Of a stretch of DNA of 64,000 nt, positions 7,181 through 56,606 are shown piece after piece (position 1 is the stretch's first letter; each line of letters begins with the position of its first letter). The stretch lies in NCBI GenBank assembly GCA_964581565.1, contig CAZOOZ010000001.1, positions 131,470 through 195,469 on the forward strand, read 5' to 3'. The translations under genes were made by a program, and so were the position numbers. The DNA comes from an uncultured Eubacteriaceae bacterium. Lineage in GTDB: Bacteria; Bacillota; Clostridia; Eubacteriales; UBA1433. Under the pieces are notes generated by a model. The model was not told the origin of the DNA and did no database searches. It saw only the letters and a program-made list of their open reading frames with translations.

Positions 7181-7838
7181 GGCTGTCAGGCCCGGGGATA
7201 TTCACTATTTTCGTAATATCGTCTATTTTTTGCTGACTGATTTTCTTTGGTATACTTAAGTCCTCCCAGAAATGCATAGGGATTGCAATTTTGGGGGAAA
7301 TTTTTTGGATAAAATATTTTATCGAATAGTCATAAGCATCTTCAAGTCTCGGATCAACGGGGATAAAAGCCATATCTACTTTATATTTACTTAAATTTTC
7401 AATATGCCGTTTATATTCTTTTTCCATATTTATCTGATTTTGCAGTGTATCTTCATTCCAGTGCCACCAATTTAGATCGCCTGAATGGAAGATTTTATAT
7501 TTTTCGGTCACGATATAAAATGAAACGCCCATATCCGTGGAGCCGAATGTGTAGAGAATGAAGTCCTTAAAAGTGTACTCTTCGTATTCCTTTACTAAAA
7601 CAATGTTTTTTGAAGAATCATAATTTTTTATGTCATCACTTAAGATATAGGTTGTATTTTTATTATCTGCATACGCAAAAATATCCTTGGTGTAGTGGTC
7701 GCCGTGGCTGTGAGAGGCAAGAAAATAAACCGGCTTCGTGTTTAGAGAAATTTTAGGAGGCGTGATTGCATCAATAAGCAGGATAAAAGTATCAAATTCA
7801 AGCATAAAACCACTTTGGAACAAATATGTTATTTTCAT
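7164..7838 (-). CDS. MBL-fold metallo-hydrolase
   Basis: HxHxDH motif (ASHSHGDHY) and later conserved H/D residues (FHSGD, PMHF). Confidence 0.75.
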   Translation of the reverse strand: MKITYLFQSGFMLEFDTFILLIDAITPPKISLNTKPVYFLASHSHGDHYTKDIFAYADNKNTTYILSDDIKNYDSSKNIVLVKEYEEYTFKDFILYTFGSTDMGVSFYIVTEKYKIFHSGDLNWWHWNEDTLQNQINMEKEYKRHIENLSKYKVDMAFIPVDPRLEDAYDYSIKYFIQKISPKIAIPMHFWEDLSIPKKISQQKIDDITKIVNIPGPDSLIYQN

Positions 7839-7971
7839 TTTATTTTCTCCTTATACTTTAATAAGATTAATTTAACACAAAAAATATATAAAATAAATAT
7901 TTATGCTATTGATTTCTTATTTAAAACTTAATACAATAATTTAAGTTGTATAAAATAAAAGGAGAGAACAA

Positions 7972-8784
7972 ATGAAAATGCGTAAAACATTAATTTTACT
8001 CACAGTGGTCTTATTTATATTTGTAAGCTTTGCAGCCTGCGGTCAGAGCAGCTCGGCGACAGATGAATCATTAAAATATATCACAGATAAGGGCGAATTG
8101 ATATTAGGCCTTGACGATGCTTTCCCGCCGATGGGTTTTAGGGATGACAATGATGAAATCGTCGGATTTGATATTGATGTTGCAAGAGCAGTCTGTGAAA
8201 AATTGGGCGTAGAGCTTGTGCTTCAGCCGATAGATTGGAATGCAAAAGAACAAGAACTGAATACCAAAAATATTGACTGCATATGGAACGGATTTTCGGT
8301 AAACGAAGAACGTATGGAAAATATGACGCTTTCCGAACCATACATGGATAACAATATGGCTCTTGTTGTACGCGCCGATTCGGGCATTGCCACGCTTGCG
8401 GATATGGCCGGAAAAAGTCTAGCCCTTCAAGCAGGATCAAGCGCACTCGATGCATTAGATGAAAATGCGGAATTCAAAGACAGTCTGGACGAAGTTGTAG
8501 AGCTAAAAGATAATCTGCAGGCTCTAATGAATCTTGATACCAAATCTGTCGATGCCGTTTTAATGGATGATGTGTCGGCAAGATATTATATTGCAACAAA
8601 TGATAAGGATTTTGTAATTGTTGACGAATATCTGTCAACGGAAGAATATGCGGTCGGTTTCAGAAAAGGCGACGAAGCGTTGAAAGATGCTGTTGATAAT
8701 GCACTGCAAGAATTTGCTGCCGATGGAACACTTGCGGAAATTTCTACGCAATGGTTTGGTGAAGATATCACAAAAATAAAATAA
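7972..8784 (+). CDS. Amino-acid ABC transporter substrate-binding lipoprotein
   Basis: Signal peptide with lipobox (SFAACGQ). SBP family-3 pattern (LGLDDAFPPMGF ... GFDIDVARAV ... IDCIWNGFS). Confidence 0.85.
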   Translation: MKMRKTLILLTVVLFIFVSFAACGQSSSATDESLKYITDKGELILGLDDAFPPMGFRDDNDEIVGFDIDVARAVCEKLGVELVLQPIDWNAKEQELNTKNIDCIWNGFSVNEERMENMTLSEPYMDNNMALVVRADSGIATLADMAGKSLALQAGSSALDALDENAEFKDSLDEVVELKDNLQALMNLDTKSVDAVLMDDVSARYYIATNDKDFVIVDEYLSTEEYAVGFRKGDEALKDAVDNALQEFAADGTLAEISTQWFGEDITKIK

Positions 8785-8855
8785 AAGCAATGCTTTTATA
8801 AGAACTACGGGGCTGTAGAAAATACAGCCTCTTTTAAGTCGAGGATGGATAGACT

Positions 8856-9497
8856 ATGGATTTTAATCAATTGTTGGGGCCGATGCTTGAGGGCACTTTT
8901 GTTCTGCTTAAGATATTTTTTTTAACACTGCTTTTTGCGCTGCCCTTGGGTCTGCTCGTTGCGTTTGGGAGAATGAGCAAAAGAAAATATATCAGCCGGC
9001 CTGTTCGAGCCTATCAGCTCATCATGCGCGGAACACCGTTGATACTGCAGTTGATGTTTGTGTTTTTTGCACCTTATTACATATTCGGCAGGACATATGA
9101 TCGTTTTACCGCAGCGATCATCGCTTTTGTTATCAACTATGCAGCGTATTTTGCAGAAATCTATCGCGCCGGGATAGAAAGTATTCCCCAAGGACAATAT
9201 GAAGCGGCCAAAGTGCTCGGGTACTCAAAAGCAAAGACGTTTATCAGAATCATTATTCCTCAGGTTGTAAAACGTATTTTGCCGCCGATGGGCAATGAAA
9301 CGATGACACTTGTAAAAGATACGGCATTGGCTTACACAATCGGGGTCGCCGAGCTTTTTCGTGCAGCGACCAACGCATCAAGCAGAGCGTTTTCCACGAT
9401 GCCTTTGATTGTTGCCGGCCTGATATATTTTATTTTGAACTTCGTTGTAGAGAAATTATTTATTCAAGCTGAGAAAAAGCTGGATTATTACAAATAG
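8856..9497 (+). CDS. Amino-acid ABC transporter permease (His/Glu/Gln/Arg family)
   Basis: Multi-TM protein with the EAA-like loop (YEAAKVLGYSKAKTFIRIIIPQ). Located in the operon between the SBP and ATPase genes. Confidence 0.85.
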   Translation: MDFNQLLGPMLEGTFVLLKIFFLTLLFALPLGLLVAFGRMSKRKYISRPVRAYQLIMRGTPLILQLMFVFFAPYYIFGRTYDRFTAAIIAFVINYAAYFAEIYRAGIESIPQGQYEAAKVLGYSKAKTFIRIIIPQVVKRILPPMGNETMTLVKDTALAYTIGVAELFRAATNASSRAFSTMPLIVAGLIYFILNFVVEKLFIQAEKKLDYYK

Positions 9498-9508
9498 CGG
9501 AGGAGAAA

Positions 9509-10276
9509 ATGTCGGTTATAGAAGCAAGCAATCTATATAAAAATTATAATGGTATAAACGTATTGAATGGCGTATCGCTTACCGTAAACGAAGGAGAAGT
9601 TGTCGCCGTTATTGGTCCGTCGGGATCGGGCAAGTCAACGTTGTTGCGATGTCTGAATCAATTGGTCTATATAGACAGCGGCAGCATTAAAGTTGGCGGT
9701 ATTAATATGGTCGGTACAGATGAAAAGGGAATATGCAGATATGCGCATAAATCTGTGCTGCATCAAATTCAATTAAAGACAGGACTCGTCTTTCAGAATT
9801 TTCATCTTTTCCCTCATTATAATGTGCTGAAAAACATTACCGATGCGCCGGTACAGATATTAAAAATGTCTAAAAAAGAAGCGGAAGAAAAAGCGTATGC
9901 ATTACTTGAACGAATGAATCTTTCCGATAAGGCCGAGGCATATCCTTATCAATTATCAGGCGGGCAAGCTCAAAGGGTATCGATTGCCAGGGCGCTTGCA
10001 CTCTCACCCACCGTGCTGTTTTTTGATGAACCCACAAGTGCGCTCGATCCGGAACTCACGATAGAAATCTTAAAAGTAATTAAAAATTTGGCCAAAGAAA
10101 AAATGACTATGGTGGTTGTTACGCATGAAATGGCTTTTGCACGGGATGTAGCCGATCGAGTTATTTTTATGGATAACGGTTCTGTTATTGAGCAAGGAGC
10201 GGCACAGGAACTATTCACCAATCCGTCAAGCGAGAGAGTAAAACAATTTTTACAGCATTTTTCAATGGAAGGCTGA
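9509..10276 (+). CDS. Amino-acid ABC transporter ATP-binding protein (GlnQ-like)
   Basis: Walker A GPSGSGKST, signature LSGGQAQRVSIARA, Walker B LFFDEPTSALDPE. Confidence 0.9.
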   Translation: MSVIEASNLYKNYNGINVLNGVSLTVNEGEVVAVIGPSGSGKSTLLRCLNQLVYIDSGSIKVGGINMVGTDEKGICRYAHKSVLHQIQLKTGLVFQNFHLFPHYNVLKNITDAPVQILKMSKKEAEEKAYALLERMNLSDKAEAYPYQLSGGQAQRVSIARALALSPTVLFFDEPTSALDPELTIEILKVIKNLAKEKMTMVVVTHEMAFARDVADRVIFMDNGSVIEQGAAQELFTNPSSERVKQFLQHFSMEG

Positions 10277-10303
10277 TCCGGCATATAAAACCGGGTCTTT
10301 TTT
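10275..10303 (+). terminator. Rho-independent terminator after the amino-acid ABC operon
   Basis: Stem GATCCGG / CCGGGTC (one G-U pair) followed by TTTTTTATTT. Confidence 0.6.
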
Positions 10304-10538
10304 ATTTCATGCATTTATGAACGGAAAAACCATACTTTTGATATTCTTAAGCATTACAGGTTATTATATGCGTAGGTGAAATTTTGGATTTTTATAAAAT
10401 ATTAAATACTTGACTTAATTGTACTGTTTTAATTCAAAAAAAATGTTTCATTTTTGTTACAAAATAAGTTAGGTAGTTGTAATTAACTGATCTTTGGTGT
10501 AAAATAAATTGGATTAATGTCGAAGAGGACTTTATTTT

Positions 10539-11402
10539 ATGATAAAAACAAATTGTGATAAATTAATTGTTCAATCGGTTTGCGGTGATATTGCTCATCC
10601 GCCCAGAGCAGGGGCATATCGTGTAAGTAGTCAAGGAGAAGCCTTAGTGCTTCCGGGTGTGGGCGGTATTGTATATAATGTTAAAATCGGAGACAGCGCG
10701 TTTGGCTGGGTTGGAGATCATATCGAGCCCGGGGTCAGCATTAAAAATCCAGAGGCCAAATACAATGAAGCGCTCAATACCATGACATGCATAGGCAATG
10801 AAGCGAAAGTTGTATCAGGTGAAGCCAAAGGGGCGACGGGCTATGTTTCAGGCACACACGGTGGAATAGAGCACGTGCTGGTTCAGTTTAAAAGTGAAGA
10901 TTTAGAAAAAATGGTCATAGGAGATACTATTCAAATAAAAGCATGCGGACAGGGTCTGCAGATTGCAGAAATAAAAAATGTCAAGTGTTTGAATTTGTCT
11001 CCTCAACTTTTAGATAAATGGGATATATTGATAAAAGACGGAATTTTAAACGTTCCGGTGTGTACGAGTGTGCCTGCATATATGATGGGTTCTGGGGTAG
11101 GATCCGGCTCAATGCATAGGGGAGACTATGATATTATGACTTCGGATGCCGATGCGGTTAAAGAATTTGATGTCGATAAACTGCGCCTAGGCGATTTGGT
11201 AATGATTACAGATCATGATACAAGATACGGTGTTGCCTATCGAAAAGGCTACGTCAGTGTCGGTGTGGTTGTTCACACAGATTGCATACAATCAGGACAT
11301 GGGCCGGGAGTGTGTATGTTGCTTACGGGGCCGGCAGAGCGGATACGGCCTGTATATGATAAAAATGCAAACATCGGATTTATGCTAAGTGAGAAGAAGT
11401 AA
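10539..11402 (+). CDS. Conserved hypothetical soluble protein (possibly DUF4438-like)
   Basis: A 287-aa Gly-rich ORF with no TM segment or signal peptide. It has an RBS-like AAGAGGA upstream. The family assignment is from memory only. Confidence 0.5.
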   Translation: MIKTNCDKLIVQSVCGDIAHPPRAGAYRVSSQGEALVLPGVGGIVYNVKIGDSAFGWVGDHIEPGVSIKNPEAKYNEALNTMTCIGNEAKVVSGEAKGATGYVSGTHGGIEHVLVQFKSEDLEKMVIGDTIQIKACGQGLQIAEIKNVKCLNLSPQLLDKWDILIKDGILNVPVCTSVPAYMMGSGVGSGSMHRGDYDIMTSDADAVKEFDVDKLRLGDLVMITDHDTRYGVAYRKGYVSVGVVVHTDCIQSGHGPGVCMLLTGPAERIRPVYDKNANIGFMLSEKK

Positions 11403-18391: not shown

Positions 18392-19789
18392 ATGGATAAT
18401 GATAACAGCAAAAAATATGAAGACGAAGAAAGCAGTATAAACAACGAAAATGATCAGTCAATAAATGACGAAGATGATCAATTAATAAATGTACACACAG
18501 ATATTGCGAATACTGATGAAAATAATGGGTCAGATATACAGCTTGTCGAACAAATACCTGAAGTTGAATATGATATCTCCGATGATGAAGAATATGATAC
18601 ATACGAGAAGAAAAGTGTCATTCAAAGAAGATGGTTCAAAGTTTTAATATCTGTTATCGTATTGCTGGGTATTGCAGGTGTTGTAGGTTTTGGTTATATT
18701 AATAAACTTGCAAGCAGTGGATCGGATTCGCTGGCAAGAGAAAATGATAAATTTTTAAATAAAGTTAATGTTTATAAGGGTTTAAATACTGCCGAGAATT
18801 TTGACAGCAATACAATTAATGTGTTGGTTTTTGGTATCGACAGAAGTGAGAGCCGGGAGGAAAGCGGTAAATTCGGGGATATTTACAGACCCGATACGAT
18901 CGTCTTAGCAAGTATAAATTTAGACACAGAAGAAGTGAATTTAATTTCTATTCCCAGAGATACGTATGTGCCTCTTTACGGAAACAGAGGAAAAACAAAG
19001 ATTAACTCATGTATGTATTACGGAGCTATTTACGGCGATAAAGACAGTGATTTCGAAAACGGCTTGGATTGCCTTGAGCAAACGGTAAGTGCTTTGTTTG
19101 GCGGGGTTCCCATTGATTTTTATGTGGGAATAGATATGGATACTGTTGTTGATGTTGTCAACAGCATGGGCGGGGTTGAATTCGATGTTCCGTATAATTT
19201 ATATAAAGATGGCGAGTTGAGGCTAAAAAAAGGGACTCAAGTCTTAAATGGAAAAAATTTTCTTTTCTTGGCTAGAGATAGATACAATGCAGGAAGCGAT
19301 ATCGAAAGAGTATCCATGCAGCAGAAATTATTAAAAGCATTGTTTGAACAATTCAAGGAATCCAATAAGTTGATGTCAATTCCCACGATCTATCAGTCAT
19401 TGAAAGAAGATATCTATACGAACTTTACTTTTGAGCAAGTTGTATCGTTGGCTGCCAATATAAAAGATTTGGAAGTTGATAATATAAATACACATACATT
19501 TCCAGGATTTTATGGCTCCAGAGATGGTATTTCTATGTGGATTATCAATCAATCTGCAAGAGTGTCTTTGATTAAAGAAGTTTTTGGTATTACCGCATCA
19601 CAATGGACGCAAGAGGAACTAAGAATAGATACACGCAAAAATACAACGACCACAGATTCAAGTGATGAAGAAGATGTAACGCCTGATGACGATGCATCAA
19701 CCGACGATACATCAACCGACGATGCTTCTACTCCTGATGACACATCGACAGAAGATACTCCTGCGGACGATTCTACAACAACGCCTTAG
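18392..19789 (+). CDS. LytR-CpsA-Psr (LCP) family glycopolymer ligase with acidic N- and C-terminal tails
   Basis: Single TM (VLISVIVLLGIAGVVGFGYI). LCP core (VLVFGIDRS ... RPDTIVLASIN ... ISIPRDTYV ... FLARDRY). Confidence 0.85.
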   Translation: MDNDNSKKYEDEESSINNENDQSINDEDDQLINVHTDIANTDENNGSDIQLVEQIPEVEYDISDDEEYDTYEKKSVIQRRWFKVLISVIVLLGIAGVVGFGYINKLASSGSDSLARENDKFLNKVNVYKGLNTAENFDSNTINVLVFGIDRSESREESGKFGDIYRPDTIVLASINLDTEEVNLISIPRDTYVPLYGNRGKTKINSCMYYGAIYGDKDSDFENGLDCLEQTVSALFGGVPIDFYVGIDMDTVVDVVNSMGGVEFDVPYNLYKDGELRLKKGTQVLNGKNFLFLARDRYNAGSDIERVSMQQKLLKALFEQFKESNKLMSIPTIYQSLKEDIYTNFTFEQVVSLAANIKDLEVDNINTHTFPGFYGSRDGISMWIINQSARVSLIKEVFGITASQWTQEELRIDTRKNTTTTDSSDEEDVTPDDDASTDDTSTDDASTPDDTSTEDTPADDSTTTP

Positions 19790-19798
19790 GCAGAAAAA

Positions 19799-19824
19799 TT
19801 AGCCTTTTACAGGCTGATTTTTTA
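19799..19824 (+). terminator. Weak rho-independent terminator after the LCP gene
   Basis: Stem TTAGCC / GGCTGA followed by TTTTTT. Confidence 0.45.
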
Positions 19825-19850: not shown

Positions 19851-19878
19851 TTGACAAATATTAAAAATATATTAAAAT
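19851..19878 (+). promoter_or_regulatory. Candidate sigma-A promoter of the phosphonate operon
   Basis: TTGACA (19851-19856), a 16-nt spacer, then TAAAAT (19873-19878). It lies ~80 nt upstream of the ATG at 19961. Confidence 0.45.
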
Positions 19879-19960: not shown

Positions 19961-21274
19961 ATGCAAGATAAGAAAAAAGTATATATAGCTGTGTCCGCTG
20001 ATATTATTCATAGCGGACATATAAATGTAATCGAAGAAGGGGCAAAATACGGACGAGTCATTATAGGTCTTATGACAGATGAAGCGATCGCAGCCTATAA
20101 GAGACTTCCTTTGTTAGATTATGAGGCAAGAGAAAAAATATTTAAAAATATAAAAAATGTTTCAAAAGTAGTACCGCAAACAAGTCTGGATTACACAGAA
20201 AATTTATTAAAATTTAAACCTGATTATGTTCTTCATGGAGACGATTGGAAAAAAGGGATTCAATCGCTTGTAAGAGAAAATGTAATTACCATTCTTTCGC
20301 AGTGGGGCGGAGAATTGGTGGAAGTGCCCTATACAAAAGGAATTTCCGCTACAGACTTAGAGCAGCAATTCAGGCTGTTAAATAACACGCCTGATAACCG
20401 ACGTGCAAAACTTAAACGTTTACTTTCTTTAAAACCCTACATTAGTGCAATGGAAGCTTCCAACGGCTTGACAGGGCTTATCGTTGAAAATATCAGAGTT
20501 GAAAACCCCGTTACTGCGACAATGAAGGAATTTGATGCTATGTGGGTCAGCAGTTTATGTGACTCTACTTTTAAAGGAAAGCCCGACATTGAACTGGTAG
20601 ATTTAACAAGCAGAATAAACACAATCAATGAAATAATGGAAGTGACGACAAAGCCGATTATTTTAGACGGCGATACGGGCGGGAAAATCGAACATTTTGT
20701 GTATAACGTAAAAACACTTGAACGACTTGGTGTTTCCGCAATTATTATTGAAGATAAAACAGGGCTGAAGAAGAATTCGCTTTTTGGTACGGATGTTGAG
20801 CAGACAATGGACGACCCGCATTTATTCGCAAAAAAAATCCTGGCCGGAAAACAAGCGCAGGTTACAAGAGATTTTATGATTTTTGCGAGAATCGAAAGTT
20901 TGATTGCGGGCTATGGGGTTGATGAGGCATTATCGAGAGCGAAGATCTATATAGAAGCAGGTGCGGATGGCATTACAATTCACAGCAAAGAAAAAGACGG
21001 AAAAGAAGTCTTGGAATTTTTAGCAAAATTCAGAGAATATTCGACAGATATACCTATTATCGTTATCCCTACATCGTATAATTATATTAAAGAAGAAGAA
21101 TTGCATGCGGCTGGAGCGAATATTATTATTCATGCCAATCATTTACTTCGAAGTGCGTATCCTGCGATGGAAAAAACGGCAAAAATGATTTTGCAATGCG
21201 GACGAAGTAAAGAAGTAGACGAGTTTTGCATGCCTATAAATGAGATACTGACATTGATTCCAGGAGGCAAATAG
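19961..21274 (+). CDS. Bifunctional cytidylyltransferase (TagD-like, N-terminal) / phosphoenolpyruvate mutase (C-terminal)
   Basis: N-terminal HxGH (IIHSGH), GDDW and an RTxGISTT-like YTKGISAT motif. The C-terminal ICL/PEPM fold has SNGLTGLIVE, ILDGDTGG and IIIEDKTGLKKNS (the Ppm EDKxxxKxNS motif). The gene sits directly upstream of a Ppd gene. Confidence 0.85.
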   Translation: MQDKKKVYIAVSADIIHSGHINVIEEGAKYGRVIIGLMTDEAIAAYKRLPLLDYEAREKIFKNIKNVSKVVPQTSLDYTENLLKFKPDYVLHGDDWKKGIQSLVRENVITILSQWGGELVEVPYTKGISATDLEQQFRLLNNTPDNRRAKLKRLLSLKPYISAMEASNGLTGLIVENIRVENPVTATMKEFDAMWVSSLCDSTFKGKPDIELVDLTSRINTINEIMEVTTKPIILDGDTGGKIEHFVYNVKTLERLGVSAIIIEDKTGLKKNSLFGTDVEQTMDDPHLFAKKILAGKQAQVTRDFMIFARIESLIAGYGVDEALSRAKIYIEAGADGITIHSKEKDGKEVLEFLAKFREYSTDIPIIVIPTSYNYIKEEELHAAGANIIIHANHLLRSAYPAMEKTAKMILQCGRSKEVDEFCMPINEILTLIPGGK

Positions 21275-21276: not shown

Positions 21277-22386
21277 ATGATTGAAACAAAAGAATTTTAT
21301 GATTACCTGCAAACAAAACAGCTGGATATGTATATGGGAGTACCCGATTCGCTTCTGAAAAATATCTGTGCCTGCATAAAAGAAAATTGTTGTAATAAGA
21401 AAAATATTATTACAGCAAACGAGGGAAATGCCGTGGCCATGGCATGTGGATATCATATAGCTACAGGCAAATATGGTATTGTTTATATGCAGAACTCAGG
21501 ACAAGGAAATACTGTAAACCCTCTGCTATCTCTCGCGGATGAAGATGTTTATAAAATTCCGATGCTGCTCCTTATCGGATGGAGGGGAGAGCCGGGGACA
21601 AAAGATGAGCCGCAGCATAAAAAACAGGGGAAAGTGACCCTGTCTTTATTGAATGCGATGGGCATTGAGTATATTATTTTGGAAGATGATTATAAATGTC
21701 AGATAGATTATTGCTATGAATATATGAATAAATATAATAAACCGATAGCACTTATTATACGCAAAGGGCTGTTTTCGGACTATAAGGGATCCAAGAAATC
21801 AAGTCCGTACGTTTTGACACGAGAAGAAGCATTAAAGAGTATTTTAAAAATACTTGATGATGACGAGTTTATTGTGTCTACGACAGGGAAAACATCGCGA
21901 GAAATTTTTGAGTTGAGAGAAGCAAGTGGGCAAGGGCACTCCAATGATTTTCTCACCGTTGGTTCTATGGGGCATACGGCATCCATTGCTTTTGGCATGT
22001 CGCTTGGGACGGAGAAAAACATATATTGTATCGATGGCGACGGATCGTTTCTAATGCACGCAGGTGGTTTTGGAATCATTGCGCAAAATGCGCAGAGTAA
22101 TTTTAAATATATATTGATCAACAATGGTGCGCATGAATCTGTGGGAGGACAGCCGACAGTAGCTTTTGATGTCGATATCGAAATGATATTAAAAGGATTT
22201 GGGTTTAAAGATGTTTATACGGCGACTGACTGCAAAGAAATAGAAAATGCAATGGAAAGTCTTAAAGTCAGTCATAGAAGTGCATTGATAATCTATACAA
22301 AACAAGGTTCTAGAAGCGATTTAGGGCGTCCGACAACAACGCCTCAGGAAAATAAAATTGCGATGATGGAGAAATTGAGTAAATAG
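21277..22386 (+). CDS. Phosphonopyruvate decarboxylase (TPP-dependent)
   Basis: N-terminal GVPDSLLKN motif typical of Ppd, TPP-binding GDGSFLMH ... NNGAHES, ~370 aa. There is a 2-nt gap after the mutase gene. Confidence 0.85.
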   Translation: MIETKEFYDYLQTKQLDMYMGVPDSLLKNICACIKENCCNKKNIITANEGNAVAMACGYHIATGKYGIVYMQNSGQGNTVNPLLSLADEDVYKIPMLLLIGWRGEPGTKDEPQHKKQGKVTLSLLNAMGIEYIILEDDYKCQIDYCYEYMNKYNKPIALIIRKGLFSDYKGSKKSSPYVLTREEALKSILKILDDDEFIVSTTGKTSREIFELREASGQGHSNDFLTVGSMGHTASIAFGMSLGTEKNIYCIDGDGSFLMHAGGFGIIAQNAQSNFKYILINNGAHESVGGQPTVAFDVDIEMILKGFGFKDVYTATDCKEIENAMESLKVSHRSALIIYTKQGSRSDLGRPTTTPQENKIAMMEKLSK

Positions 22387-22388: not shown

Positions 22389-24227
22389 ATGAGAGCGGTT
22401 ATTTTGAATTCGGGATTGGGAAAAAGAATGGGCGAGCTGACGGAAAATAATCATAAAGCGATGGTGCAACTGTCAAACGGAGAAGCTGTTTTTTTAAGAC
22501 AGCTTCGTATTTTGATGGAATGCGGGATCAAAGAATTTGTCGTCACAACAGGGCCGTATAAAGAAAAGATAGAAGCTGCGGTGGCGCAGATGAATACAAA
22601 GAACCAAGTATCTTTTACTTTTGTGCATAATCCGTGCTATGATAAAACCAATTATATATATTCAATGTATTTGGCGAAGCAATTCTTGGATGATGATATA
22701 CTTCTCATGCACGGCGATCTGGTCTTTACGAAAAAACTTGTCGAGGAAATGTGTAAAGATAAGAGAGATAATATTGCTACCGTAAATAAAAAGAAAAGTT
22801 TGCCTGAAAAAGATTTTAAGGCGAAACTTGAAGAAAATAGAATCCAAAAGATAGGCATAGAGCTTTTTGATGAAGACTGCTATGCATTCCAGCCTTTTTA
22901 TAAGCTAAGCAAAGAATATGTCATGCGATGGCGAGAACAAATATGTAAATTTATAGAAAAAGGAATTGATCAGGTTTATGCGGAAAATGCATTGAATGAA
23001 ATCCTGCCTTCTTTAAACATGAATGCATTCGATTACGAAGATTATTATATAGATGAAATCGATACGCCTGAAGACCTAAAGAGGGTAAGCGAAGAAATCA
23101 GGCAATATGATTTTGATGCACAGCAGATATATGATGAAGAAAACGCATATTTGCAAATTGAGTCTATTCTTCAGAAAAATAACGTCAAAAAAGTTATGCT
23201 GGTTTGCGGCAAAAGTTACGACAGGCAGTTTATAAAAGAGTACATGGATTCTTTGAACGTGGAGATGATTCGTTTTAGCGGCTTTGCATCTAATCCTGTA
23301 TATGAAGATGTGGTGAAAGGTGCTGAATTATTCAAGGCCAATAAATGTGAATTTATAATCTCGGTTGGCGGGGGAAGCGCTATCGATACAGCGAAAAATA
23401 TTAAATTGTTTTCATGTCTTGACAGCACTGATAATTATTTGAAGCAAAAATATAAATTTTGCCCTGTGCAGCATTTAGCAATACCTACAACGGCAGGAAC
23501 GGGCAGTGAATGCACCAGATTTTCTGTTTTGTATTATAAAGGGCAAAAACAATCAGTCAGCCATGACAGCATCATCCCCGATTATGTTATTTTAGAACCC
23601 AGATTGCTGCTTGGGTTACCCGAATATCAAAAAAAATCCACAACGCTTGACGCACTTTGCCAAGCAGTTGAAGCTTTTTGGTCGGTAAATTCAAATAAGA
23701 TCAGCAAACAATATTCTAAAGAGAGTATACAGCTCATACTTAATAGTTTTGATAAAGCACTTTTAAATGATTTAAAAGCATTAAAAAATATGCAAAAAGC
23801 ATCTTTTTTAAGCGGGAAAGCAATTAATATAGCGCAAACAACAGCTGCACATGCGATGAGCTATAAATTATCGTCACTTTATAACATTTCTCATGGTCAT
23901 GCCGTAAGCTTAAGTCTGCCTTATATCTGGGAATATATGGTTCAGCATTTAGATCAATGTGCGGATAAAAGAGGCAGAGCATATTTAGAAAATGTATTCA
24001 TCGAGTTAAACGATATATTTGGGGTCAGTAATACTGATGAATGTATCAATAAATTTAGACAAATATGCAATGAATTTAATCTGCAAAATCCAAAATTAAA
24101 AAATAAAGATGAGTTAGAAGAGTTAATAAACTCTGTAAATCCGCTTCGCTTGAAAAATAATCCTGTCACATTGAATATAGATAGTATTGAAGATATTTAC
24201 AGACATATTTTAACTGAGAAAAAGTGA
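22389..24227 (+). CDS. Fusion of LicC-like nucleotidyltransferase (N-terminal) and iron-containing alcohol dehydrogenase (C-terminal; predicted phosphonoacetaldehyde reductase)
   Basis: N-terminal MRAVILNSGLGKRMGELTENNHKAMV plus YDKTNYIYSMYLAK and IDEIDTPEDL, which parallel pneumococcal LicC. The C-terminal domain has GGGSAIDTAKN and the His-rich AHAMSY...SHGHAV Fe-ADH motifs. Confidence 0.8.
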   Translation: MRAVILNSGLGKRMGELTENNHKAMVQLSNGEAVFLRQLRILMECGIKEFVVTTGPYKEKIEAAVAQMNTKNQVSFTFVHNPCYDKTNYIYSMYLAKQFLDDDILLMHGDLVFTKKLVEEMCKDKRDNIATVNKKKSLPEKDFKAKLEENRIQKIGIELFDEDCYAFQPFYKLSKEYVMRWREQICKFIEKGIDQVYAENALNEILPSLNMNAFDYEDYYIDEIDTPEDLKRVSEEIRQYDFDAQQIYDEENAYLQIESILQKNNVKKVMLVCGKSYDRQFIKEYMDSLNVEMIRFSGFASNPVYEDVVKGAELFKANKCEFIISVGGGSAIDTAKNIKLFSCLDSTDNYLKQKYKFCPVQHLAIPTTAGTGSECTRFSVLYYKGQKQSVSHDSIIPDYVILEPRLLLGLPEYQKKSTTLDALCQAVEAFWSVNSNKISKQYSKESIQLILNSFDKALLNDLKALKNMQKASFLSGKAINIAQTTAAHAMSYKLSSLYNISHGHAVSLSLPYIWEYMVQHLDQCADKRGRAYLENVFIELNDIFGVSNTDECINKFRQICNEFNLQNPKLKNKDELEELINSVNPLRLKNNPVTLNIDSIEDIYRHILTEKK

Positions 24228-25078
24228 GAAAGATGCACGATAATTTATATAGAAATAACATTGAACATACTCAAGTAAAGCAACTGCAAGCATACGAGCT
24301 GGAGATTCTGCTTGCAGTAGACGAATTCTGCAAGCAGAACAATATCAATTATTATTTGGGGGAAGGAACTCTACTCGGCGCAATCCGGCACAATGGCTTT
24401 ATTCCGTGGGATGATGATATAGATCTTTTGATGCCGAGAGAAGATTATGAAAAATTTATTAGTCTGGCTCAGATTGCATTTCCTGATGGTTATTATTTAG
24501 ACTGTATGGAAACAAATCCAAATTACTGGGTCATAGGAGCGAAAATTAAATTGACGAGACAAACAAAATTTGAACAGACAAAAGTAAAAAAACTATCAAA
24601 GTATGCCGGGCCGTATATAGACATTTTTCCTTTGGATTATGTTGCAAAAAGAAGTAGTTTCCCGCAGCTTTGGCAAGGATACAAAATAAAAGCTTTACGA
24701 AGAACATTATTTTTCAAAACCAGATATTCAATGAATTTTAAAAATAAATTTAATGTCTTATTATTTTTGTTCAGTAAAATCGTAACTATTAAATTTATTC
24801 ATAAGAGAATAAAAAAAATCATGACTAAATATAACGATAAAAAAGATAATGCATATATGCTGAGTTATGCAAGTTATTATCCGCCCGCCAATCAGACAGT
24901 GCATAAATCTGTATACGGCAAGGCAAGAATGCATGTTTTCGAAGGCTACGAATTCCCGATTCCGGCGAAAACAGAGTGTTTGCTTACGGCCATCTACGGT
25001 GATTATATGACCGTTCCCGATGAGGAAGACAGAATCATGAAGCATCACTTTTCCGTAAAACAAAATTTTTCATATTAG
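24224..25078 (+). CDS. LicD-family phosphotransferase
   Basis: LGEGTLLGAIRHNGFIPWDDDIDLLMPREDYEKF and YGDYMTVPDEE motifs. GTGA overlap with the upstream stop (alternative ATG at 24233). Confidence 0.85.
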   Translation: MRKMHDNLYRNNIEHTQVKQLQAYELEILLAVDEFCKQNNINYYLGEGTLLGAIRHNGFIPWDDDIDLLMPREDYEKFISLAQIAFPDGYYLDCMETNPNYWVIGAKIKLTRQTKFEQTKVKKLSKYAGPYIDIFPLDYVAKRSSFPQLWQGYKIKALRRTLFFKTRYSMNFKNKFNVLLFLFSKIVTIKFIHKRIKKIMTKYNDKKDNAYMLSYASYYPPANQTVHKSVYGKARMHVFEGYEFPIPAKTECLLTAIYGDYMTVPDEEDRIMKHHFSVKQNFSY

Positions 25079-25091
25079 CAAAGGAAGATGT

Positions 25092-26975
25092 ATGGAACAA
25101 GGTAGCATAAAAGTATCTGTTATTGTGCCGGTTTATAATGTGGAGCATTATCTGCCGCAATGTCTGGACAGCTTGGTAAACCAGACATTAAATGATGTGG
25201 AAATTCTTGTAATCAATGATGGCTCCCCCGATAATTCTCAAGTCATTATCGATGAATATGTAAGAAAATATCCAAATAAAATAAAAGCATTTATAAAAGA
25301 AAACGGTGGGCTCAGCGATGCACGCAACTATGGCATCAAAAAGGCGAAAGGGGAATATATCGGGTTTGTTGACTCGGATGATTATGCCGAAGTAAATATG
25401 TTCGAGGAGCTTTATATAAAAGCCGTCAGTGAGAACTTTGACGTTGTTGTTTGCTATATAAATGAGCTTAAAGAAGATAAAACAAAAATCATGCCTCTGC
25501 ACTATTTAAGAGCTTTTGGAGGCAGCGTTGAAGAAAACCCCGAGGTTTTATTTGCGTGTAAATCTTATGCATTTAACAAATTGTATAAAAGAAAACTCTT
25601 TATAGACAATGATCTATATTTTCCTGTGGGCCAGGTTTTTGAGGATTCGGCCACTGTCTATAATGTGCTTTTAATGGCAAATAAAATTGGGCTTGTCGAT
25701 AAAGCTTTATGCAATTACAGAACAGACAGAGTAAATTCCATCACGAACAGTGTTGATATGGGCATGTTTGATGTATTTAAATCCTGCGATAGTATTATTA
25801 ATTTTTATACATCAAAAGGTGTGTTTGATATCACATATGAAGTGCTGGAAAATATATGCAGAATGCATGTTTTTGCAAGAATCAATACACTTAAAAATTC
25901 AACGAACAGAAAATTTCAAAATCAATTTTTTGATAAAGCATATAAATATTTAGATAACCATTTTCCAAATTGGAGAAAAAATAGATATTATCAATATTCG
26001 TATAAAAATTTAATCAAAAAAAGAACGTACAAAAAGTTTACGAAAGCAAAAATGTATAAAACAAGATTAAAAATGTATTTTATAATCCCGATGAGTTTTC
26101 GGCGAAAACTGATGAAAATATTTTGGCGCAAGAAACCAAAGCTTGTTAAGGCAAAGTTTTCGCCGGAACAATTTAAACAATTACAGCTCATTGAATTAGA
26201 CATATTAAAGACTGTGGATGCTTTTTGCAAAGAAAACAATATCGCGTACTATTTGGCCGAAGGAACACTGCTTGGAGCAATCAGGCACAACGGATTCATA
26301 CCATGGGATGATGATGTGGATATTCTGATGCCGAGAGAAGATTATGATAGATTTATCAAATTATTCAATACACAAATAATTGATAACTGCATACTTTGCA
26401 GTCGTCATACTATAAAAGAGTATCATTTGCCGTTTTCAAAAATAGTCACACTTCAAGATACAGGCTTTATTAATAACGAAAGCTTTTCTTTAAAAGAGTA
26501 TAATGGGGTATATATTGATATTTTTCCTCTCGATAAAGCAATCGAATATGGAGAGGAACAGAATCAAAGAAGAAAAAAAATAAGAAAATACAGAGATATG
26601 CTTCTTTTTAAAACAGGCTATCCCATGAAAGCAACAAAAGAGAGGTTTGTCACAAAGATAAGATCTTGTTTTTATTCATATGAAATTTTACATAAAAGAA
26701 TAGAGCAGCTTTCAACTTACTATAATGATAAAGAAGATTGCGAGTATGTAGCTAACTATGCCAGCTCATACCAGCTGAAAAGACAAACATTTCCCATATG
26801 GGCATTTGAAGAAGTTGAATATGTTTCCTTTGAAACATATAAACTACCTGTTCCAAAAGGATATGATTTGGTTTTGAGTATCATTTATGGCGACTACTTA
26901 ACGTTCCCGCCTCTTGAAAAAAGAAAATCAAAACATAGCTTTATTTATATGAATGACGGGCAGATAAAGAGTTAA
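25092..26975 (+). CDS. GT2 glycosyltransferase (N-terminal) fused to LicD-family phosphotransferase (C-terminal)
   Basis: GT2: VSVIVPVYNVEHYL ... INDGSPDNS ... FVDSDD. LicD: LAEGTLLGAIRHNGFIPWDDDVDILMPREDYDRF ... YGDYLTFPP. Confidence 0.85.
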   Translation: MEQGSIKVSVIVPVYNVEHYLPQCLDSLVNQTLNDVEILVINDGSPDNSQVIIDEYVRKYPNKIKAFIKENGGLSDARNYGIKKAKGEYIGFVDSDDYAEVNMFEELYIKAVSENFDVVVCYINELKEDKTKIMPLHYLRAFGGSVEENPEVLFACKSYAFNKLYKRKLFIDNDLYFPVGQVFEDSATVYNVLLMANKIGLVDKALCNYRTDRVNSITNSVDMGMFDVFKSCDSIINFYTSKGVFDITYEVLENICRMHVFARINTLKNSTNRKFQNQFFDKAYKYLDNHFPNWRKNRYYQYSYKNLIKKRTYKKFTKAKMYKTRLKMYFIIPMSFRRKLMKIFWRKKPKLVKAKFSPEQFKQLQLIELDILKTVDAFCKENNIAYYLAEGTLLGAIRHNGFIPWDDDVDILMPREDYDRFIKLFNTQIIDNCILCSRHTIKEYHLPFSKIVTLQDTGFINNESFSLKEYNGVYIDIFPLDKAIEYGEEQNQRRKKIRKYRDMLLFKTGYPMKATKERFVTKIRSCFYSYEILHKRIEQLSTYYNDKEDCEYVANYASSYQLKRQTFPIWAFEEVEYVSFETYKLPVPKGYDLVLSIIYGDYLTFPPLEKRKSKHSFIYMNDGQIKS

Positions 26976-27138
26976 GAAATTTATAAGTTGTATAAACGGC
27001 TTCGTTTCTGTATAATAGAGGCGATATATTTAGTAGATTAAATGAAAAATAAATATAATAAAACATAAAAACAATCTATACGTTTATAATAATAATGCGC
27101 TAGATGCATGACAAAAATGATGCAAAGTATCATTACAG

Positions 27139-27960
27139 TTGGAGAATTCGAAATTGACTATAGAACAAATAAAAGAGTTGCAGGCTATAGAACTAGATAT
27201 CTTATTGCAAGTAGACAAAGTTTGTAAAAAACATAATATAACCTATTATCTCGGAGAAGGCTCTCTGCTTGGAGCTGTACGCCATAAAGGGTTTATCCCA
27301 TGGGATGATGATTTGGATATTCTAATGAAGCGGGATGAGTATGAAAGATTTTTAAAAATCGCACCGGCAGAAATGGGCCCGAATTATGAAGTACAGCATC
27401 CTACCACTGTGTATAGCTATTGGTCGCCTTTTATTAAAGTAAGATTGCTTGGAAAACAGAAGTTCAGGCAAAAGCATATCGCACATCTTACCGAAAATAA
27501 CGGGCCGTATATCGATATTTTTCCGATGGAATCGGTGCCGAAACTAAAAAGTCTCGGACAATTATGGCAAGGCATGAAGATAAATTTTTTGAGAGCCATG
27601 CTTACCTATAAACTAGTTCTGCGTAAACCTAATACTATGAAAAGAAAACTAGTCACTGCATCATCCAAGTTTTTATCGATCAATACAATACACAAGATGC
27701 TTGATAAAAATTTCAAACTATATAATGACAGAAAAGATAATAATTATACCGTCACGCTTGCCAGTTATCATAATATGTTTAATCAGACAGTGCCCGATGA
27801 AGTATACGGGCAGCCTGTAGAGGTAGAGTTTGAGGGACACGTGTTTCCGGCCCCAAGGCAATACGATTATCTTTTAAGACGGGTTTATGGAGATTACACA
27901 AAGCTGCCGCCCCTAGAAAAACAGACTATTAAGCATCATTTTATAGTCATTGAAGAATAA
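27139..27960 (+). CDS. LicD-family phosphotransferase (third paralog)
   Basis: LGEGSLLGAVRHKGFIPWDDDLDILMKRDEYERF ... YGDYTKLPP. The more likely start is the TTG at 27154, 7 nt after GGAGAA. Confidence 0.8.
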   Translation: MENSKLTIEQIKELQAIELDILLQVDKVCKKHNITYYLGEGSLLGAVRHKGFIPWDDDLDILMKRDEYERFLKIAPAEMGPNYEVQHPTTVYSYWSPFIKVRLLGKQKFRQKHIAHLTENNGPYIDIFPMESVPKLKSLGQLWQGMKINFLRAMLTYKLVLRKPNTMKRKLVTASSKFLSINTIHKMLDKNFKLYNDRKDNNYTVTLASYHNMFNQTVPDEVYGQPVEVEFEGHVFPAPRQYDYLLRRVYGDYTKLPPLEKQTIKHHFIVIEE

Positions 27961-51951: not shown

Positions 51952-52106
51952 GTGTGTTTTCATATCAGCAATTTTTTTTGTGAAAGCTTAACTCTTCACG
52001 TAACAATCTTAAATGCTGACCAATTATCTTTAAGCAACCGCTTTCTTTTTGTTAATTACATTTTATTCGATAAAAGAATTATTAATTGTTGATATGATCC
52101 CTCTTC

Positions 52107-52135
52107 TTGACTAAATACATATACGGTGTTAAAAT
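52107..52135 (+). promoter_or_regulatory. Candidate promoter of the AraC-family gene
   Basis: TTGACT (52107-52112), a 17-nt spacer, then an extended -10 TGtTAAAAT (52127-52135). Confidence 0.5.
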
Positions 52136-52137
52136 TA

Positions 52138-52155
52138 AGTTAGCAAAGGCTAACT
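52138..52155 (+). promoter_or_regulatory. Palindromic box AGTTAGC-AAAG-GCTAACT (copy A)
   Basis: Perfect 7-bp arms located just downstream of the candidate -10 and 20 nt upstream of the AraC ATG. Copy B is at 53246. Confidence 0.55.
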
Positions 52156-52174
52156 GTAAAGCGGGGCTACTATT

Positions 52175-53161
52175 ATGGAGCAAGAGATTTCTATAAACTC
52201 AAAGGATGAATATTTCAGTGATCTCGTAAATCGCTATGGCTTCTCTTATGCGCAGGGTGAAAATACGGCAACCCTGATACCTCCAAAAGAGCTTGGTAGC
52301 GGATATATCAAAGCGGTTCAAGCAAGCGGCGATATTGACATCGGGATCATAGATCTTTTTCTGGCGCGGCCGATTATTTCATATTATGATAATTATTCAA
52401 ATACCTGTGAGGTGACATATTGTTTCAGCGGACATATTTTCTACTCGGAAACTGGTATCACAAAGGCAAATTTAAATAAAAATGAAATGGGAATATATGC
52501 ACTTCCATACAGTCGGGGAATGACCATGATTCCTTCGGGTAAGCGGGTATGTGTTGTGTCGGTGGAATCAAAGAAGCCCTTTCACGATCGACTGCCGTAT
52601 ACCGAGAAGTGCACACAATATGACGATACGTCAGTGAAGAAATTATTACACCAGTTGGTACAGCCGAAAAAGGCAAATGCAAAAATCCACAACTATTTCA
52701 GTCAAATTATAGAAAATAATATCGGTCGGGAATTAAAGAATACATACCTTGATTCGTTAGGCAAAGTCTTATTATCTGATCTGTGGCAGGAAAATATCAT
52801 ACTTCCTCTCACCGGAGGGAAACGCACGGTTTATTCCGGTTTTGAAAGAAACGCACTACTGGAAGCCAAAGAAATTTTATGTGACCATTATTCTTCTCCG
52901 CCAACTATTCCTGAGTTGGCCAAGATGGTTGCGCTCAACGAGCATAAGCTAAAATCTGGTTTCCGTGATATGTATGGCAAGAGCATATATGAATACGTCC
53001 GCAGTTTAAGGATGAAAAACGCAAGCCACCTGCTTGAGAATGTTGATTTAAGCATCAGCGAGATTGCGGGGATGGTGGGGTACGTGAACACCAGCCATTT
53101 TGCCCGCGCCTTCCGAAATGAATATGGCTTAAACCCCAGCGATTTTCGTCTTGGAGTGTAA
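52175..53161 (+). CDS. AraC-family transcriptional regulator (328 aa)
   Basis: C-terminal double HTH (TIPELAKMVALNEHKLKSGFRDMYG ... ISEIAGMVGYVNTSHFARAFRNEYGLNPSDFR) and a ~220-aa N-terminal putative ligand domain. Confidence 0.9.
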   Translation: MEQEISINSKDEYFSDLVNRYGFSYAQGENTATLIPPKELGSGYIKAVQASGDIDIGIIDLFLARPIISYYDNYSNTCEVTYCFSGHIFYSETGITKANLNKNEMGIYALPYSRGMTMIPSGKRVCVVSVESKKPFHDRLPYTEKCTQYDDTSVKKLLHQLVQPKKANAKIHNYFSQIIENNIGRELKNTYLDSLGKVLLSDLWQENIILPLTGGKRTVYSGFERNALLEAKEILCDHYSSPPTIPELAKMVALNEHKLKSGFRDMYGKSIYEYVRSLRMKNASHLLENVDLSISEIAGMVGYVNTSHFARAFRNEYGLNPSDFRLGV

Positions 53162-53204
53162 AAAATCCCGGTTGGAGCGGCGGGAACAACATCATAACTG
53201 GTAA

Positions 53205-53238
53205 AATAAGTGTTGATTTGTAGGCGCTTATTTTTTTT
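53205..53238 (+). terminator. Rho-independent terminator after the AraC gene
   Basis: Stem AATAAGTG / CGCTTATT followed by a T-run. Confidence 0.6.
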
Positions 53239-53245
53239 GAATTGA

Positions 53246-53263
53246 AGTTAGCAAAGACTAACT
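53246..53263 (+). promoter_or_regulatory. Palindromic box AGTTAG-CAAAGA-CTAACT (copy B)
   Basis: 6-bp arms, 21 nt upstream of the permease TTG start. It is embedded in a 34-nt stretch that is 29/34 identical to copy A by manual alignment. Confidence 0.55.
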
Positions 53264-53283
53264 ATATAGTGGGGGTACATATA

Positions 53284-55854: not shown

Positions 55855-56606
55855 GAAAGAAATATGGCCATCAGGTTGCATTGGATGATGTATCGTTATC
55901 CATTGCACCCGGCGAAAGCGTATCCTTGATCGGGGAGAGCGGTAGCGGAAAAAGCACGCTTTCAAGGCTTATTCTCGCCCTTGAAAAGCCGTCGGGTGGC
56001 GTCATACTTTGGAACGGCAGAAACGTATCCGAGTTGCGTGGCAAAAAGTTGTACCGGGACATTCAGCCGGTCTTTCAGGACAACACGGGCTGTTTCAATC
56101 CCCGGCGCAGAGTAATGGACAGCCTTGACGAGCCGATGAGAAACTTACTTGGGATACCTGCAGCCGAGCGGGAAAAAAGAATTTGCAGCTTGCTTGAACG
56201 GGTTGGTCTCCCGGTGGATATTGCAAACCGCTATCCGCACGAGCTGTCCGGTGGGCAGCGCAGGCGCGTTTGCATCGCAAGAGCCATCTCCATCCATCCC
56301 GAGCTGGTAATTCTTGATGAAGCGGTTACCGGCCTGGACGCTACGGTCATGATGAAAATACTGGCCCTGCTGAAAGCGTTGCAGCGGGAGACCGGATGCG
56401 CTTATCTGTTTATCACCCACGATTTGCGCGCCGCCCTGTATATATCTGAAAAAATCGCGGTGATGAAAGACGGCCGCATCGTGGAAACCGCCGAGCATGT
56501 CTCTTCATTGTCTGCGTTTAAACATCCTTTTTCCAAACAGCTTATAGGAAACAGGAAATATATATTACTAAATCAGGAGGATTATAATGAAATACTACAT
56601 GAGTAA
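55833..56606 (+). CDS. ABC importer ATP-binding protein (DppF/NikE-like)
   Basis: TTG start 5 nt after GGAGGAG. Walker A GESGSGKST, signature LSGGQRRRVCIARA, Walker B VILDEAVTGLD. Confidence 0.88.
   Translation: MLEIRNVRKKYGHQVALDDVSLSIAPGESVSLIGESGSGKSTLSRLILALEKPSGGVILWNGRNVSELRGKKLYRDIQPVFQDNTGCFNPRRRVMDSLDEPMRNLLGIPAAEREKRICSLLERVGLPVDIANRYPHELSGGQRRRVCIARAISIHPELVILDEAVTGLDATVMMKILALLKALQRETGCAYLFITHDLRAALYISEKIAVMKDGRIVETAEHVSSLSAFKHPFSKQLIGNRKYILLNQEDYNEILHE

Follow-up and report, generated by a model that had tools for sequence, protein, structure and literature searches.

Three LicD orthogroups, one fused to a GT2 glycosyltransferase, in a predicted hydroxyethylphosphonate operon of an uncultured Eubacteriaceae bacterium

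Results and Discussion

Why should one bacterial operon carry three LicD-family transferases, one of them fused to a glycosyltransferase, directly behind a set of phosphonate-biosynthesis genes? The question is raised by a locus in a 64,000-nucleotide (nt) stretch of contig CAZOOZ010000001.1 (assembly GCA_964581565.1), analysed as a whole and referred to below as the window. The operon consists of six tightly packed genes on the + strand, and the three LicD-type genes make up its 3' half. The reading that we favour, at moderate confidence, is that a teichoic-acid-type polymer bearing 2-hydroxyethylphosphonate (HEP) is built via three non-redundant LicD steps and a TarS/TarP-like glycosylation, with HEP itself, the cytidine monophosphate (CMP)-HEP donor, the acceptors, the order of steps and the role of each LicD all being predictions. 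Its basis is what the analysis established: which domains the proteins contain, that their catalytic residues are kept and that selection on them is purifying, how the orthogroups are structured and which gene context is conserved. The genes of the operon are as follows.

19961..21274, + strand: cytidylyltransferase-phosphoenolpyruvate (PEP) mutase fusion gene (PF01467 and PF13714)
21277..22386, + strand: phosphonopyruvate decarboxylase (Ppd) gene (TIGR03297, 436 bits, above the cutoff of 312.5)
22389..24227, + strand: nucleotidyltransferase (NT)-iron alcohol dehydrogenase (Fe-ADH) fusion gene (PF12804, PF00465 and PF25137)
24224..25078 (likely start ATG 24233), + strand: LicD1, orthogroup b (PF04991, E 3e-46)
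25092..26975, + strand: GT2-LicD2 fusion, orthogroup a (PF00535 and PF04991)
27139..27960 (likely start TTG 27154), + strand: LicD3, orthogroup c (PF04991, E 4e-45)

The LicD Domains

The initial annotation of this DNA had proposed three LicD domains and a middle gene joining a GT2 glycosyltransferase to LicD, and both proposals were borne out. PF04991 matched all three proteins over the whole profile (1-227/227) with 155-159 bits against a cutoff of 22.6 (E ~1e-45 each), and the middle protein carries PF00535 at its N-terminus (120 bits) with the DSDD motif, followed by PF04991 at residues 379-600. The core motif described for the three domains is present in each of them, except that LicD3 reads GSLLGA, not GTLLGA.

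Across 115 LicD domains, 36 alignment columns are at least 80% conserved; all 36 are kept in LicD1 and LicD2, while in LicD3 two of them carry a conservative D to E change, and two further changes are non-catalytic. The hG[GS], WDDDxD and YIDIFP-Asp columns are invariant over the 115 domains and retained in LicD1, LicD2 and LicD3. The LicD profile aligns with FKRP over YYLxEGxLLGAxRHxGxIPWDxDxD, the equivalent residues being FKRP G345/S346, D360/D362/D364 and D416; D360/D362/D364/D416 and the hG[GS] motif are metal-binding, essential elements of FKRP (PMC6965139). The AlphaFold2 model of LicD1 (predicted local distance difference test score, pLDDT, 92.1; predicted template modelling score, pTM, 0.90) gave 13 matches in the PDB at E<=1e-3, and all 13 were FKRP chains, with ~240 columns aligned to the predicted structure.

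FKRP and fukutin are mammalian ribitol-phosphate transferases of the LicD superfamily, paralogs that act in sequence on one glycan (PMC6965139). The LicDs studied here have the same metal site, the same three Asp residues and the same hG[GS] motif, and FKRP is the only solved structure that matched the LicD model. However, the identity is only ~13-15%, and FKRP is a eukaryotic protein with an added stem domain and zinc finger that uses cytidine diphosphate (CDP)-ribitol as the donor.

To measure selection, the operon was compared with its orthologue in a related metagenomic genome (L001; related loci are numbered in this way), the two being 80-92% identical. The ratio of nonsynonymous to synonymous substitution rates (dN/dS) was 0.051 for LicD1, 0.055 for the GT2 domain, 0.078 for the LicD2 domain and 0.032 for LicD3, the value for the comparison gene GlnA being 0.030. 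LicD3 is the most conserved of the three, with 92% amino acid (aa) identity to L001. All three LicDs are thus under strong purifying selection, and their FKRP-type catalytic residues are intact. Loss of the DxD metal site or pseudogenisation, which the initial annotation had named as grounds for abandoning its proposal, was looked for and not found: the catalytic residues are all kept and dN/dS is 0.03-0.08.

Domains of this family are predicted to take a phospho- or phosphono-alcohol from a cytidylyl donor and attach it to a hydroxyl of a glycan. Anchoring of the LicDs by a transmembrane segment was considered and rejected, as the maximum Kyte-Doolittle 19-residue mean is 1.33 and no transmembrane helix was found in any of the three. 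Strongly basic segments are present in all three LicD proteins.

The Phosphonate-Donor Genes

The product of 19961-21274 consists of a Fom1-like cytidylyltransferase domain (aa 6-135) and a PEP mutase (PepM, or Ppm) domain (aa 151-435). The latter contains EDKTGLKKNS, which conforms to the EDKxxxxxNS motif of genuine PEP mutases, and scores 380 bits with TIGR02320, above the cutoff of 319.6. The cytidylyltransferase domain is 55% identical (72/130, ungapped; E 1.5e-48) to that of Fom1 (structure 5X3D), which cytidylylates HEP in fosfomycin biosynthesis (as summarised in PMC6697681). The product of 22389-24227 combines a LicC/IPCT/PntC-like NT domain (aa 1-235), nearest to CTP:inositol-1-phosphate cytidylyltransferase (IPCT), LicC and PntC (PDB matches 2xme, 1jyk and 6pd1), with an Fe-ADH domain (aa 246-607). 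No aminotransferase that could serve as a 2-aminoethylphosphonate (AEP) transaminase was found in the operon, and the Fe-ADH takes the step after Ppd. In the classification of PMC8942020, an Fe-ADH at the post-decarboxylase step corresponds to the HEP branch, and from its context we infer that the Fe-ADH is a phosphonoacetaldehyde reductase giving 2-HEP.

Among the closest known counterparts are the phosphonyl tailoring (Pnt) clusters of A. rimae, O. uli and T. denticola, in which the PntC cytidylyltransferase and LicD-like transferases accompany Ppm, Ppd and AEP transaminase (Rice et al. 2019, PMC6697681). As in clusters of this kind, cytidylyltransferase domains are joined to the phosphonate enzymes, here PF01467 to PepM and PF12804 to ADH, and three LicDs lie directly 3'. 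The likeness lies in the PEP mutase-cytidylyltransferase fusion, Ppd, another nucleotidyltransferase close by and the placing of LicD-like transferases beside wall-glycan genes, in keeping with a scheme of CMP activation and then LicD transfer, while the differences are an Fe-ADH (HEP branch) instead of AEP transaminase, and three LicD orthogroups, one of them GT2-fused. For the Pnt clusters too, LicD transfer of phosphonate is a proposal.

Two different cytidylyltransferase domains occur in every HEP-type cassette examined: in the window they lie at 19961-20395 (PF01467, Fom1-like) and 22389-23093 (PF12804, LicC/IPCT-like), and both are likewise present in L004, L008, L011, L014, L035, L090, L091 and L094. 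In L011, both domains and PepM form one protein. Dual nucleotidyltransferases and triple NT-cytidylyltransferase (CT)-Ppm fusions were noted by Rice et al. 2019 (PMC6697681), with no roles assigned.

Origin of the Three LicD Paralogs

To place the three paralogs, a neighbour-joining (NJ) tree of 59 LicD domains was constructed (~265 columns, 200 bootstraps). The background sample came from the matches listed in a scan of genome contigs with generic LicD peptides (FIPWDDDxD) taken from the GT2-LicD alignment; these were mostly distant LicDs, and the nearest relatives of the operon were not among the matches listed. Group c, comprising LicD3-type domains and the ADH-fused domain of L016, was recovered in 200/200 replicates, group b (LicD1 type) in 181/200, and b and c were sisters in 173/200. 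The GT2-fused group a together with L013, which was not placed in a, b or c, received 149/200, and an HEP-linked subclade within a was weak (109/200). The three groups plus L013 were separated from all other sampled LicDs, including pneumococcal-group LicD1/LicD2, Treponema and Mogibacterium sequences, in 182/200 replicates. Earlier, sparser NJ trees built without L090 and L091 (a 10%, b 55%, superclade 36%) are not relied on; support rose once further sequences entered the tree.

Each copy in the window scores higher against LicDs of distant clusters than against its operon-mates. BLAST bit scores were 262 and 248 (other clusters) versus 230 and 200 (operon-mates) for LicD1, 259, 225 and 218 versus 200 for LicD2, and 314, 293 and 268 versus 230 for LicD3. 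Because of these scores, and because a clade of the window lineage's three paralogs alone appeared in 0/200 bootstraps, the duplications are judged to be ancient. The three LicDs are therefore true paralogs that arose by old duplications in one LicD lineage, and the three types were already established when the cassette spread through Clostridia, Bacilli and Actinobacteria.

The initial annotation read near-identical DNA stretches as a trace of duplication inside the operon, a view examined here as recent duplication or gene conversion. Such stretches exist and match at 42/47 nt, the first at 24404-24450 (not beginning at 24408) and the second at 26301-26347. They belong to a longer family found by repeat search:

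24317-24459 (reference), 26214-26356 (79%) and 27211-27353 (71%), + strand: 143-nt in-register similarity family containing the 47-mers

Together with a 22-nt exact run (p=0.035, uncorrected), these are the observations that speak for a recent event. However, the LicD domains are only 40-44% identical pairwise at the protein level and 50-52% at the DNA level, and synonymous sites between the paralogs are saturated, the Nei-Gojobori proportion of synonymous differences (pS) being 0.77-0.85. Identical codons at identical residues are as frequent as codon usage predicts (59 observed vs 58.9 expected, 53 vs 59.5 and 58 vs 55.1). In a simulation in which the protein alignment was fixed and each codon was redrawn from the usage of neighbouring genes, 9.8% of the redraws reached 42/47 in their best 47-nt window and 8.7% reached 113/143 in their best 143-nt window, and the 22-nt run was not significant after correction for six tests (3 pairs x 2 statistics). 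Given these results and the placement of each paralog with relatives from distant clusters, recent duplication or conversion within the operon is highly improbable, and the step from DNA similarity to intra-operon duplication is not supported. The 47-nt tract encodes PWDDDxDxLMPREDY, the catalytic core, and GAT, GAA, TAT and AGA are codons favoured in this AT-rich genome; the conserved peptide and codon bias therefore account for the short near-identical tract. The DNA likeness is true homology limited to the most conserved peptide, with nothing past protein constraint and codon bias. The case shows that in an AT-rich genome these two factors alone can yield near-identical short tracts between paralogs.

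Conservation of the Gene Context

Two related genomes from metagenomes, L001 and L007, keep the whole operon in synteny, with fusion proteins 84% and 65% identical, respectively, to that of the window. The cassette (CT-PepM, Ppd, NT and Fe-ADH) together with LicDs recurs in L001, L007, L004, L008, L011, L014, L035, L063, L090, L091 and L094, the distant clusters retaining both with shuffled architecture. The more informative loci, some of them in metagenome-assembled genomes (MAGs), are organised as follows.

L091: cassette with GT2-LicD, LicD, LicD, a TagB-sized Glyphos_transf protein, a TagG/TagH-like transporter, an epimerase and a TagO-like GT4
L004: cassette with Glyphos_transf, an 896-aa GT2-LicD-LicD protein, LicD, TagGH and LCP
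L094 (Bacilli MAG): cassette with Glyphos_transf, GT2-x-LicD, LicD and TagGH
L008 (Oscillospiraceae MAG): cassette with GT2-LicD, LicD and TarI/TarJ-like genes
L090: cassette with a LicD overlapping the ADH gene, TagF-like genes and TagGH
L011: NT-CT-PepM triple fusion with three separate LicDs
L024 (Arachnia): Ppd, NT and Fe-ADH, then LicD and GT2; the contig ends here, with no PepM in the part covered
L016 (Acutalibacteraceae MAG), 7345-10795: Fe-ADH-LicD (c-type) fusion directly after TagG/TagH-like transporter genes

In L091, L004, L094 and L090, the cassette thus lies inside wall-teichoic-acid-type clusters of the TagGH/TagB-like kind, with a TagO-like gene as well in L091. Within 10 kb on either side of the L016 fusion no PepM or Ppd was found, and the phosphonate genes of this bacterium may be located elsewhere or HEP may be scavenged.

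This context also bears on whether the LicDs are ordinary phosphocholine transferases whose adjacency to phosphonate genes is incidental. Database annotations call them 'lipopolysaccharide cholinephosphotransferase', and there is a weak NCBIfam match to the Mf1 cholinephosphotransferase model, at 83-90 bits versus a cutoff of 225. However, no LicA, LicB or choline-uptake gene was found in the cluster or the 64-kb window, the LicD genes are tightly packed with the phosphonate genes and overlap them, the linkage is kept over at least 10 divergent clusters, Fe-ADH-LicD fusions exist, and pneumococcal-group LicD1/LicD2 form a separate clade. We therefore consider a phosphocholine function improbable.

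The GT2-LicD architecture is not confined to the cassette: six of the eight fusions whose context was looked up lie in HEP cassettes, and those of L092 and L093 do not. The fusion architecture is therefore older and broader than its association with phosphonate genes. A specific pairing of the NT domain with a-type LicD was considered and rejected, since NT is present in L014, L090 and L035 without an a-type LicD.

Two further arrangements were observed. The protein encoded at 10001-12691 of L004 (P0007) and about 25 similar proteins constitute a GT2-LicD-LicD family of ~900 aa, in which a- and b-type LicDs are fused and a separate c-type LicD follows. In L008 (12729-16027), TarI-like (IspD), TarJ-like (Zn-ADH) and alkaline phosphatase genes come after the HEP cassette and its GT2-LicD and LicD, which suggests polymers combining ribitol phosphate and phosphonate.

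The GT2-LicD2 Fusion Protein

In the fusion protein, aa 1-~345 form a GT-A glycosyltransferase with a helical acceptor domain, aa 309-348 a basic helical linker with a net charge of +17 over 40 residues, and aa ~351-627 the LicD domain. More than 100 collinear homologues were found, and D94/D96/D97 and E184/D185 are invariant in 64 homologues. In the AlphaFold2 model (pLDDT 92.4, pTM 0.67) the domains are confidently predicted, their mutual orientation less so. Foldseek matched aa 1-~345 to CgT (5hea), TarS, TarP and RmlT with E-values of 1e-15 to 1e-21 and template modelling (TM) scores of 0.67-0.79.

TarS, TarP and RmlT belong to the GT-A enzymes and add sugars to wall teichoic acid. Their GT2 catalytic and helical domains superpose on the fusion over ~345 columns (E 1e-15 to 1e-17, TM 0.67-0.72), with the DxD and ED motifs invariant; however, identity is 18-24%, and here a LicD domain stands in place of their trimerisation or other domains at the C-terminus. 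That the GT2 domain glycosylates a poly(alditol-phosphate) is a prediction from the fold. The proposal of the initial annotation that one protein may add a sugar and then a phosphoryl or phosphonyl group is plausible, because the GT2 fold is TarS/TarP/RmlT-like and phosphonate genes lie upstream.

A bolder possibility, which we put forward only tentatively and think rather unlikely, is that HEP is a chain-building unit. GT2-LicD would then be a bifunctional polymerase of an alternating glycosyl-hydroxyethylphosphonate backbone, or LicD would oligomerise HEP, and priming, branching or capping of the chain would fall to the b- and c-type LicDs. The idea arises because HEP, in the manner of glycerol phosphate, has a free hydroxyl as well as its phosphonate. 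It is supported by the complete TagGH-type clusters of L091 (with its TagO-like gene), L004 and L094, in which, GT2-LicD and the LicDs apart, a TagB-sized Glyphos_transf is the only evident candidate polymerase, and by the precedent of CpsC of Actinobacillus pleuropneumoniae, a LicD-family glycerol-3-phosphate polymerase (PMC11666461). CpsC is likewise a PF04991 enzyme able to oligomerise a hydroxyl-bearing phospho-alcohol, and works with glycosyltransferase-containing polymerases in teichoic-acid-like polymers. However, it is a Gram-negative capsule enzyme of TPR-LicD architecture with CDP-glycerol as the donor, and it was compared with the LicDs here at the family level. Simple side-chain decoration by HEP would fit the evidence too. 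A backbone of this kind, if real, would give the wall a teichoic-acid-type polymer whose main chain contains phosphatase-resistant C-P bonds.

Proposed Function of the Operon

The sequence of reactions proposed for the operon is as follows. PEP mutase would convert PEP to phosphonopyruvate, Ppd would decarboxylate it to phosphonoacetaldehyde, the Fe-ADH would reduce this to HEP, and the Fom1-type cytidylyltransferase would activate HEP to CMP-HEP. On the cytoplasmic side of the membrane, the LicDs would release CMP from the donor and join the HEP phosphonyl group to distinct hydroxyls of a lipid-linked teichoic-acid-type glycopolymer, possibly transferring a second CDP-activated alcohol phosphate as well, and the GT2 domain would add a sugar. 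The polymer would then be exported, and the LCP (LytR-CpsA-Psr) enzyme encoded next to the operon would ligate the finished polymer to peptidoglycan. Since the three orthogroups are conserved, three different transfer steps are expected, distinguished by their acceptors and/or donors.

Several points weigh against this reading. No specific ADH equivalog model of NCBIfam passes its cutoff for the Fe-ADH, and with AEP transaminase absent the HEP assignment therefore derives from context; the enzymatic steps in general rest on sequence and context. The second cytidylyltransferase is kept in every cassette, so that at least one LicD may use a non-phosphonate donor. Same-clade GT2-LicD proteins occur without PepM within 10 kb in L092, L093 and L074 (the last from the background sample), and the a-type LicD is therefore not intrinsically phosphonate-specific. 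The sampling of the NJ tree was limited, and group a without L013 has a modest support of 91/200. Elsewhere in the 64-kb window no priming transferase, transporter or other glycosyltransferase for a wall polymer was found, nor any further gene of wall-polymer synthesis.

A rival reading is that donors are mixed: only the c-type LicD3 would transfer HEP, and LicD1 and GT2-LicD2 would be a general glycopolymer-building pair that draws on a different CDP-activated alcohol phosphate, such as the product of the NT domain. The c-type LicD occurs in most sampled HEP cassettes, is the sole LicD of L014, is fused to Fe-ADH in L016 and evolves under the strongest constraint of the three; GT2-LicD (a) is found with a further LicD in clusters without PepM (L092, where a 513-aa LicD groups with b, and L093). 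The union of the cassette with TarI/TarJ-like CDP-ribitol genes in L008 and the constant presence of two cytidylyltransferases point the same way. However, b-type LicDs lie directly against the Fe-ADH gene, or overlap it, in the window as well as in L090 and L024; the occurrence of NT without a-type LicD in three loci leaves no specific NT-a pairing; and the HEP-linked a-type domains form a subclade of their own, albeit a weak one. A division of donors along these lines is credible but less probable than the reading favoured here.

Comparison with Other Known Systems

With respect to the early steps of fosfomycin biosynthesis in Streptomyces (Fom1 cytidylyltransferase-PepM, Fom2 and FomC), the operon encodes the same four predicted activities leading to CMP-HEP. 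The difference is that CMP-HEP is predicted here to feed the LicDs, not the pathway of a small-molecule antibiotic, and no Fom3 methyltransferase, Fom4 epoxidase or FomD hydrolase domains were found among the seven cluster proteins scanned.

In Streptococcus pneumoniae, LicD1 and LicD2 serve two N-acetylgalactosamine positions of the teichoic acid repeat (PMC13385700), and the initial annotation suggested that the same logic may apply to the multiple copies found here. The likeness consists in PF04991 paralogs lying side by side and a cytidylyl-activated donor; the pneumococcal enzymes differ in using CDP-choline supplied by LicA and LicC, and have no glycosyltransferase fusion. Neither the cluster nor the 64-kb window contains a LicA/LicB/LicC set, and LicD1/LicD2 of the S. 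mitis group form a separate clade. The comparison is a fair functional analogy but not a case of shared origin, the duplications being independent. Because the defining genes of both systems are absent, the operon falls outside the Lic phosphocholine class as well as the fosfomycin class.

Significance

The operon is a known phosphonyl-tailoring logic in an uncharacterised form. Bacterial genomes commonly encode phosphonate decoration of the cell surface, the chemistry of which is almost uncharacterised, and in one survey only 2/10 HEP-type gene-cluster families had an isolated product (PMC8942020). In the literature searched, we found no LicD enzyme shown to transfer phosphonate and no link between LicD and phosphonate after Rice 2019; searches on HEP with teichoic acid and on PntC with LicD returned only Rice 2019 (PMC6697681). 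The operon and its relatives offer a compact, conserved and testable set, consisting of a Fom1-like CMP-HEP route, three separable LicD orthogroups and a GT2-LicD fusion; several uncultured Clostridia and Bacilli carry it within clusters for the export and ligation of teichoic acid. Assigning the role of each LicD would define the transfer step of phosphonyl tailoring and could reveal wall polymers with phosphatase-resistant C-P linkages, with a bearing on phage receptors, immune recognition and phosphorus cycling in gut and rumen communities.

Flanking Genes and Candidate Regulatory Features

Three further features flank or interrupt the operon.

18392..19789, + strand: LCP glycopolymer-to-peptidoglycan ligase gene (PF03816, E 2e-33; TIGR00350 domain model, 99 bits, above the cutoff of 62.3)
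19851..19878, + strand: sigma-70-like promoter match TTGACA-16-TAAAAT (11/12), top-scoring upstream of the operon and a candidate by consensus match only
26988..27016, + strand: TTGTAT-17-TATAAT element in the 163-nt gap before LicD3, from sequence reading and intergenic alignment; conserved in L001 and partly in L007

A hairpin at 19793-19823 lies just 3' of the LCP gene, which adjoins the operon and is probably transcribed on its own; at the other end, a convergent ABC-F gene bounds the operon. An Rfam scan of the whole window returned nothing at gathering score. By its Ffh sequence, the organism lies among uncultured Clostridia, close to MAGs labelled Eubacteriaceae (83% identity); the named genera Alkalibaculum, Anaerofustis and Caloramator reach 56-60%.

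The longest open reading frame of LicD1 overlaps the stop of the upstream NT-Fe-ADH gene. The longest-frame starts, GTG 24224 for LicD1 and TTG 27139 for LicD3, are probably not the real ones; ATG 24233 and TTG 27154 are preferred because of their better ribosome-binding context and their agreement with most database orthologue calls (281 and 268 aa). TTG 27154 stands 8 nt after GGAGA.

The AT-rich gap between GT2-LicD2 and LicD3, ~165-195 nt long, is kept in all three syntenic operons (window 26976-27153, L001 11882-12074 and L007 11879-12044). Since the TTGTAT-17-TATAAT element within it is conserved in L001, LicD3 may have an internal promoter of its own. The element was not picked up by the promoter consensus scan, and a weak hairpin (27002-27024) overlaps it.

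Further downstream, positions 52000-62000 of the window have a GC content of 45-50%, compared with ~36% elsewhere, and code for an AraC-type regulator, an Opp/Nik-like ABC importer (permeases, two ATPases and a lipoprotein binding protein) and two fused ABC exporters. This region looks like a horizontally acquired island.

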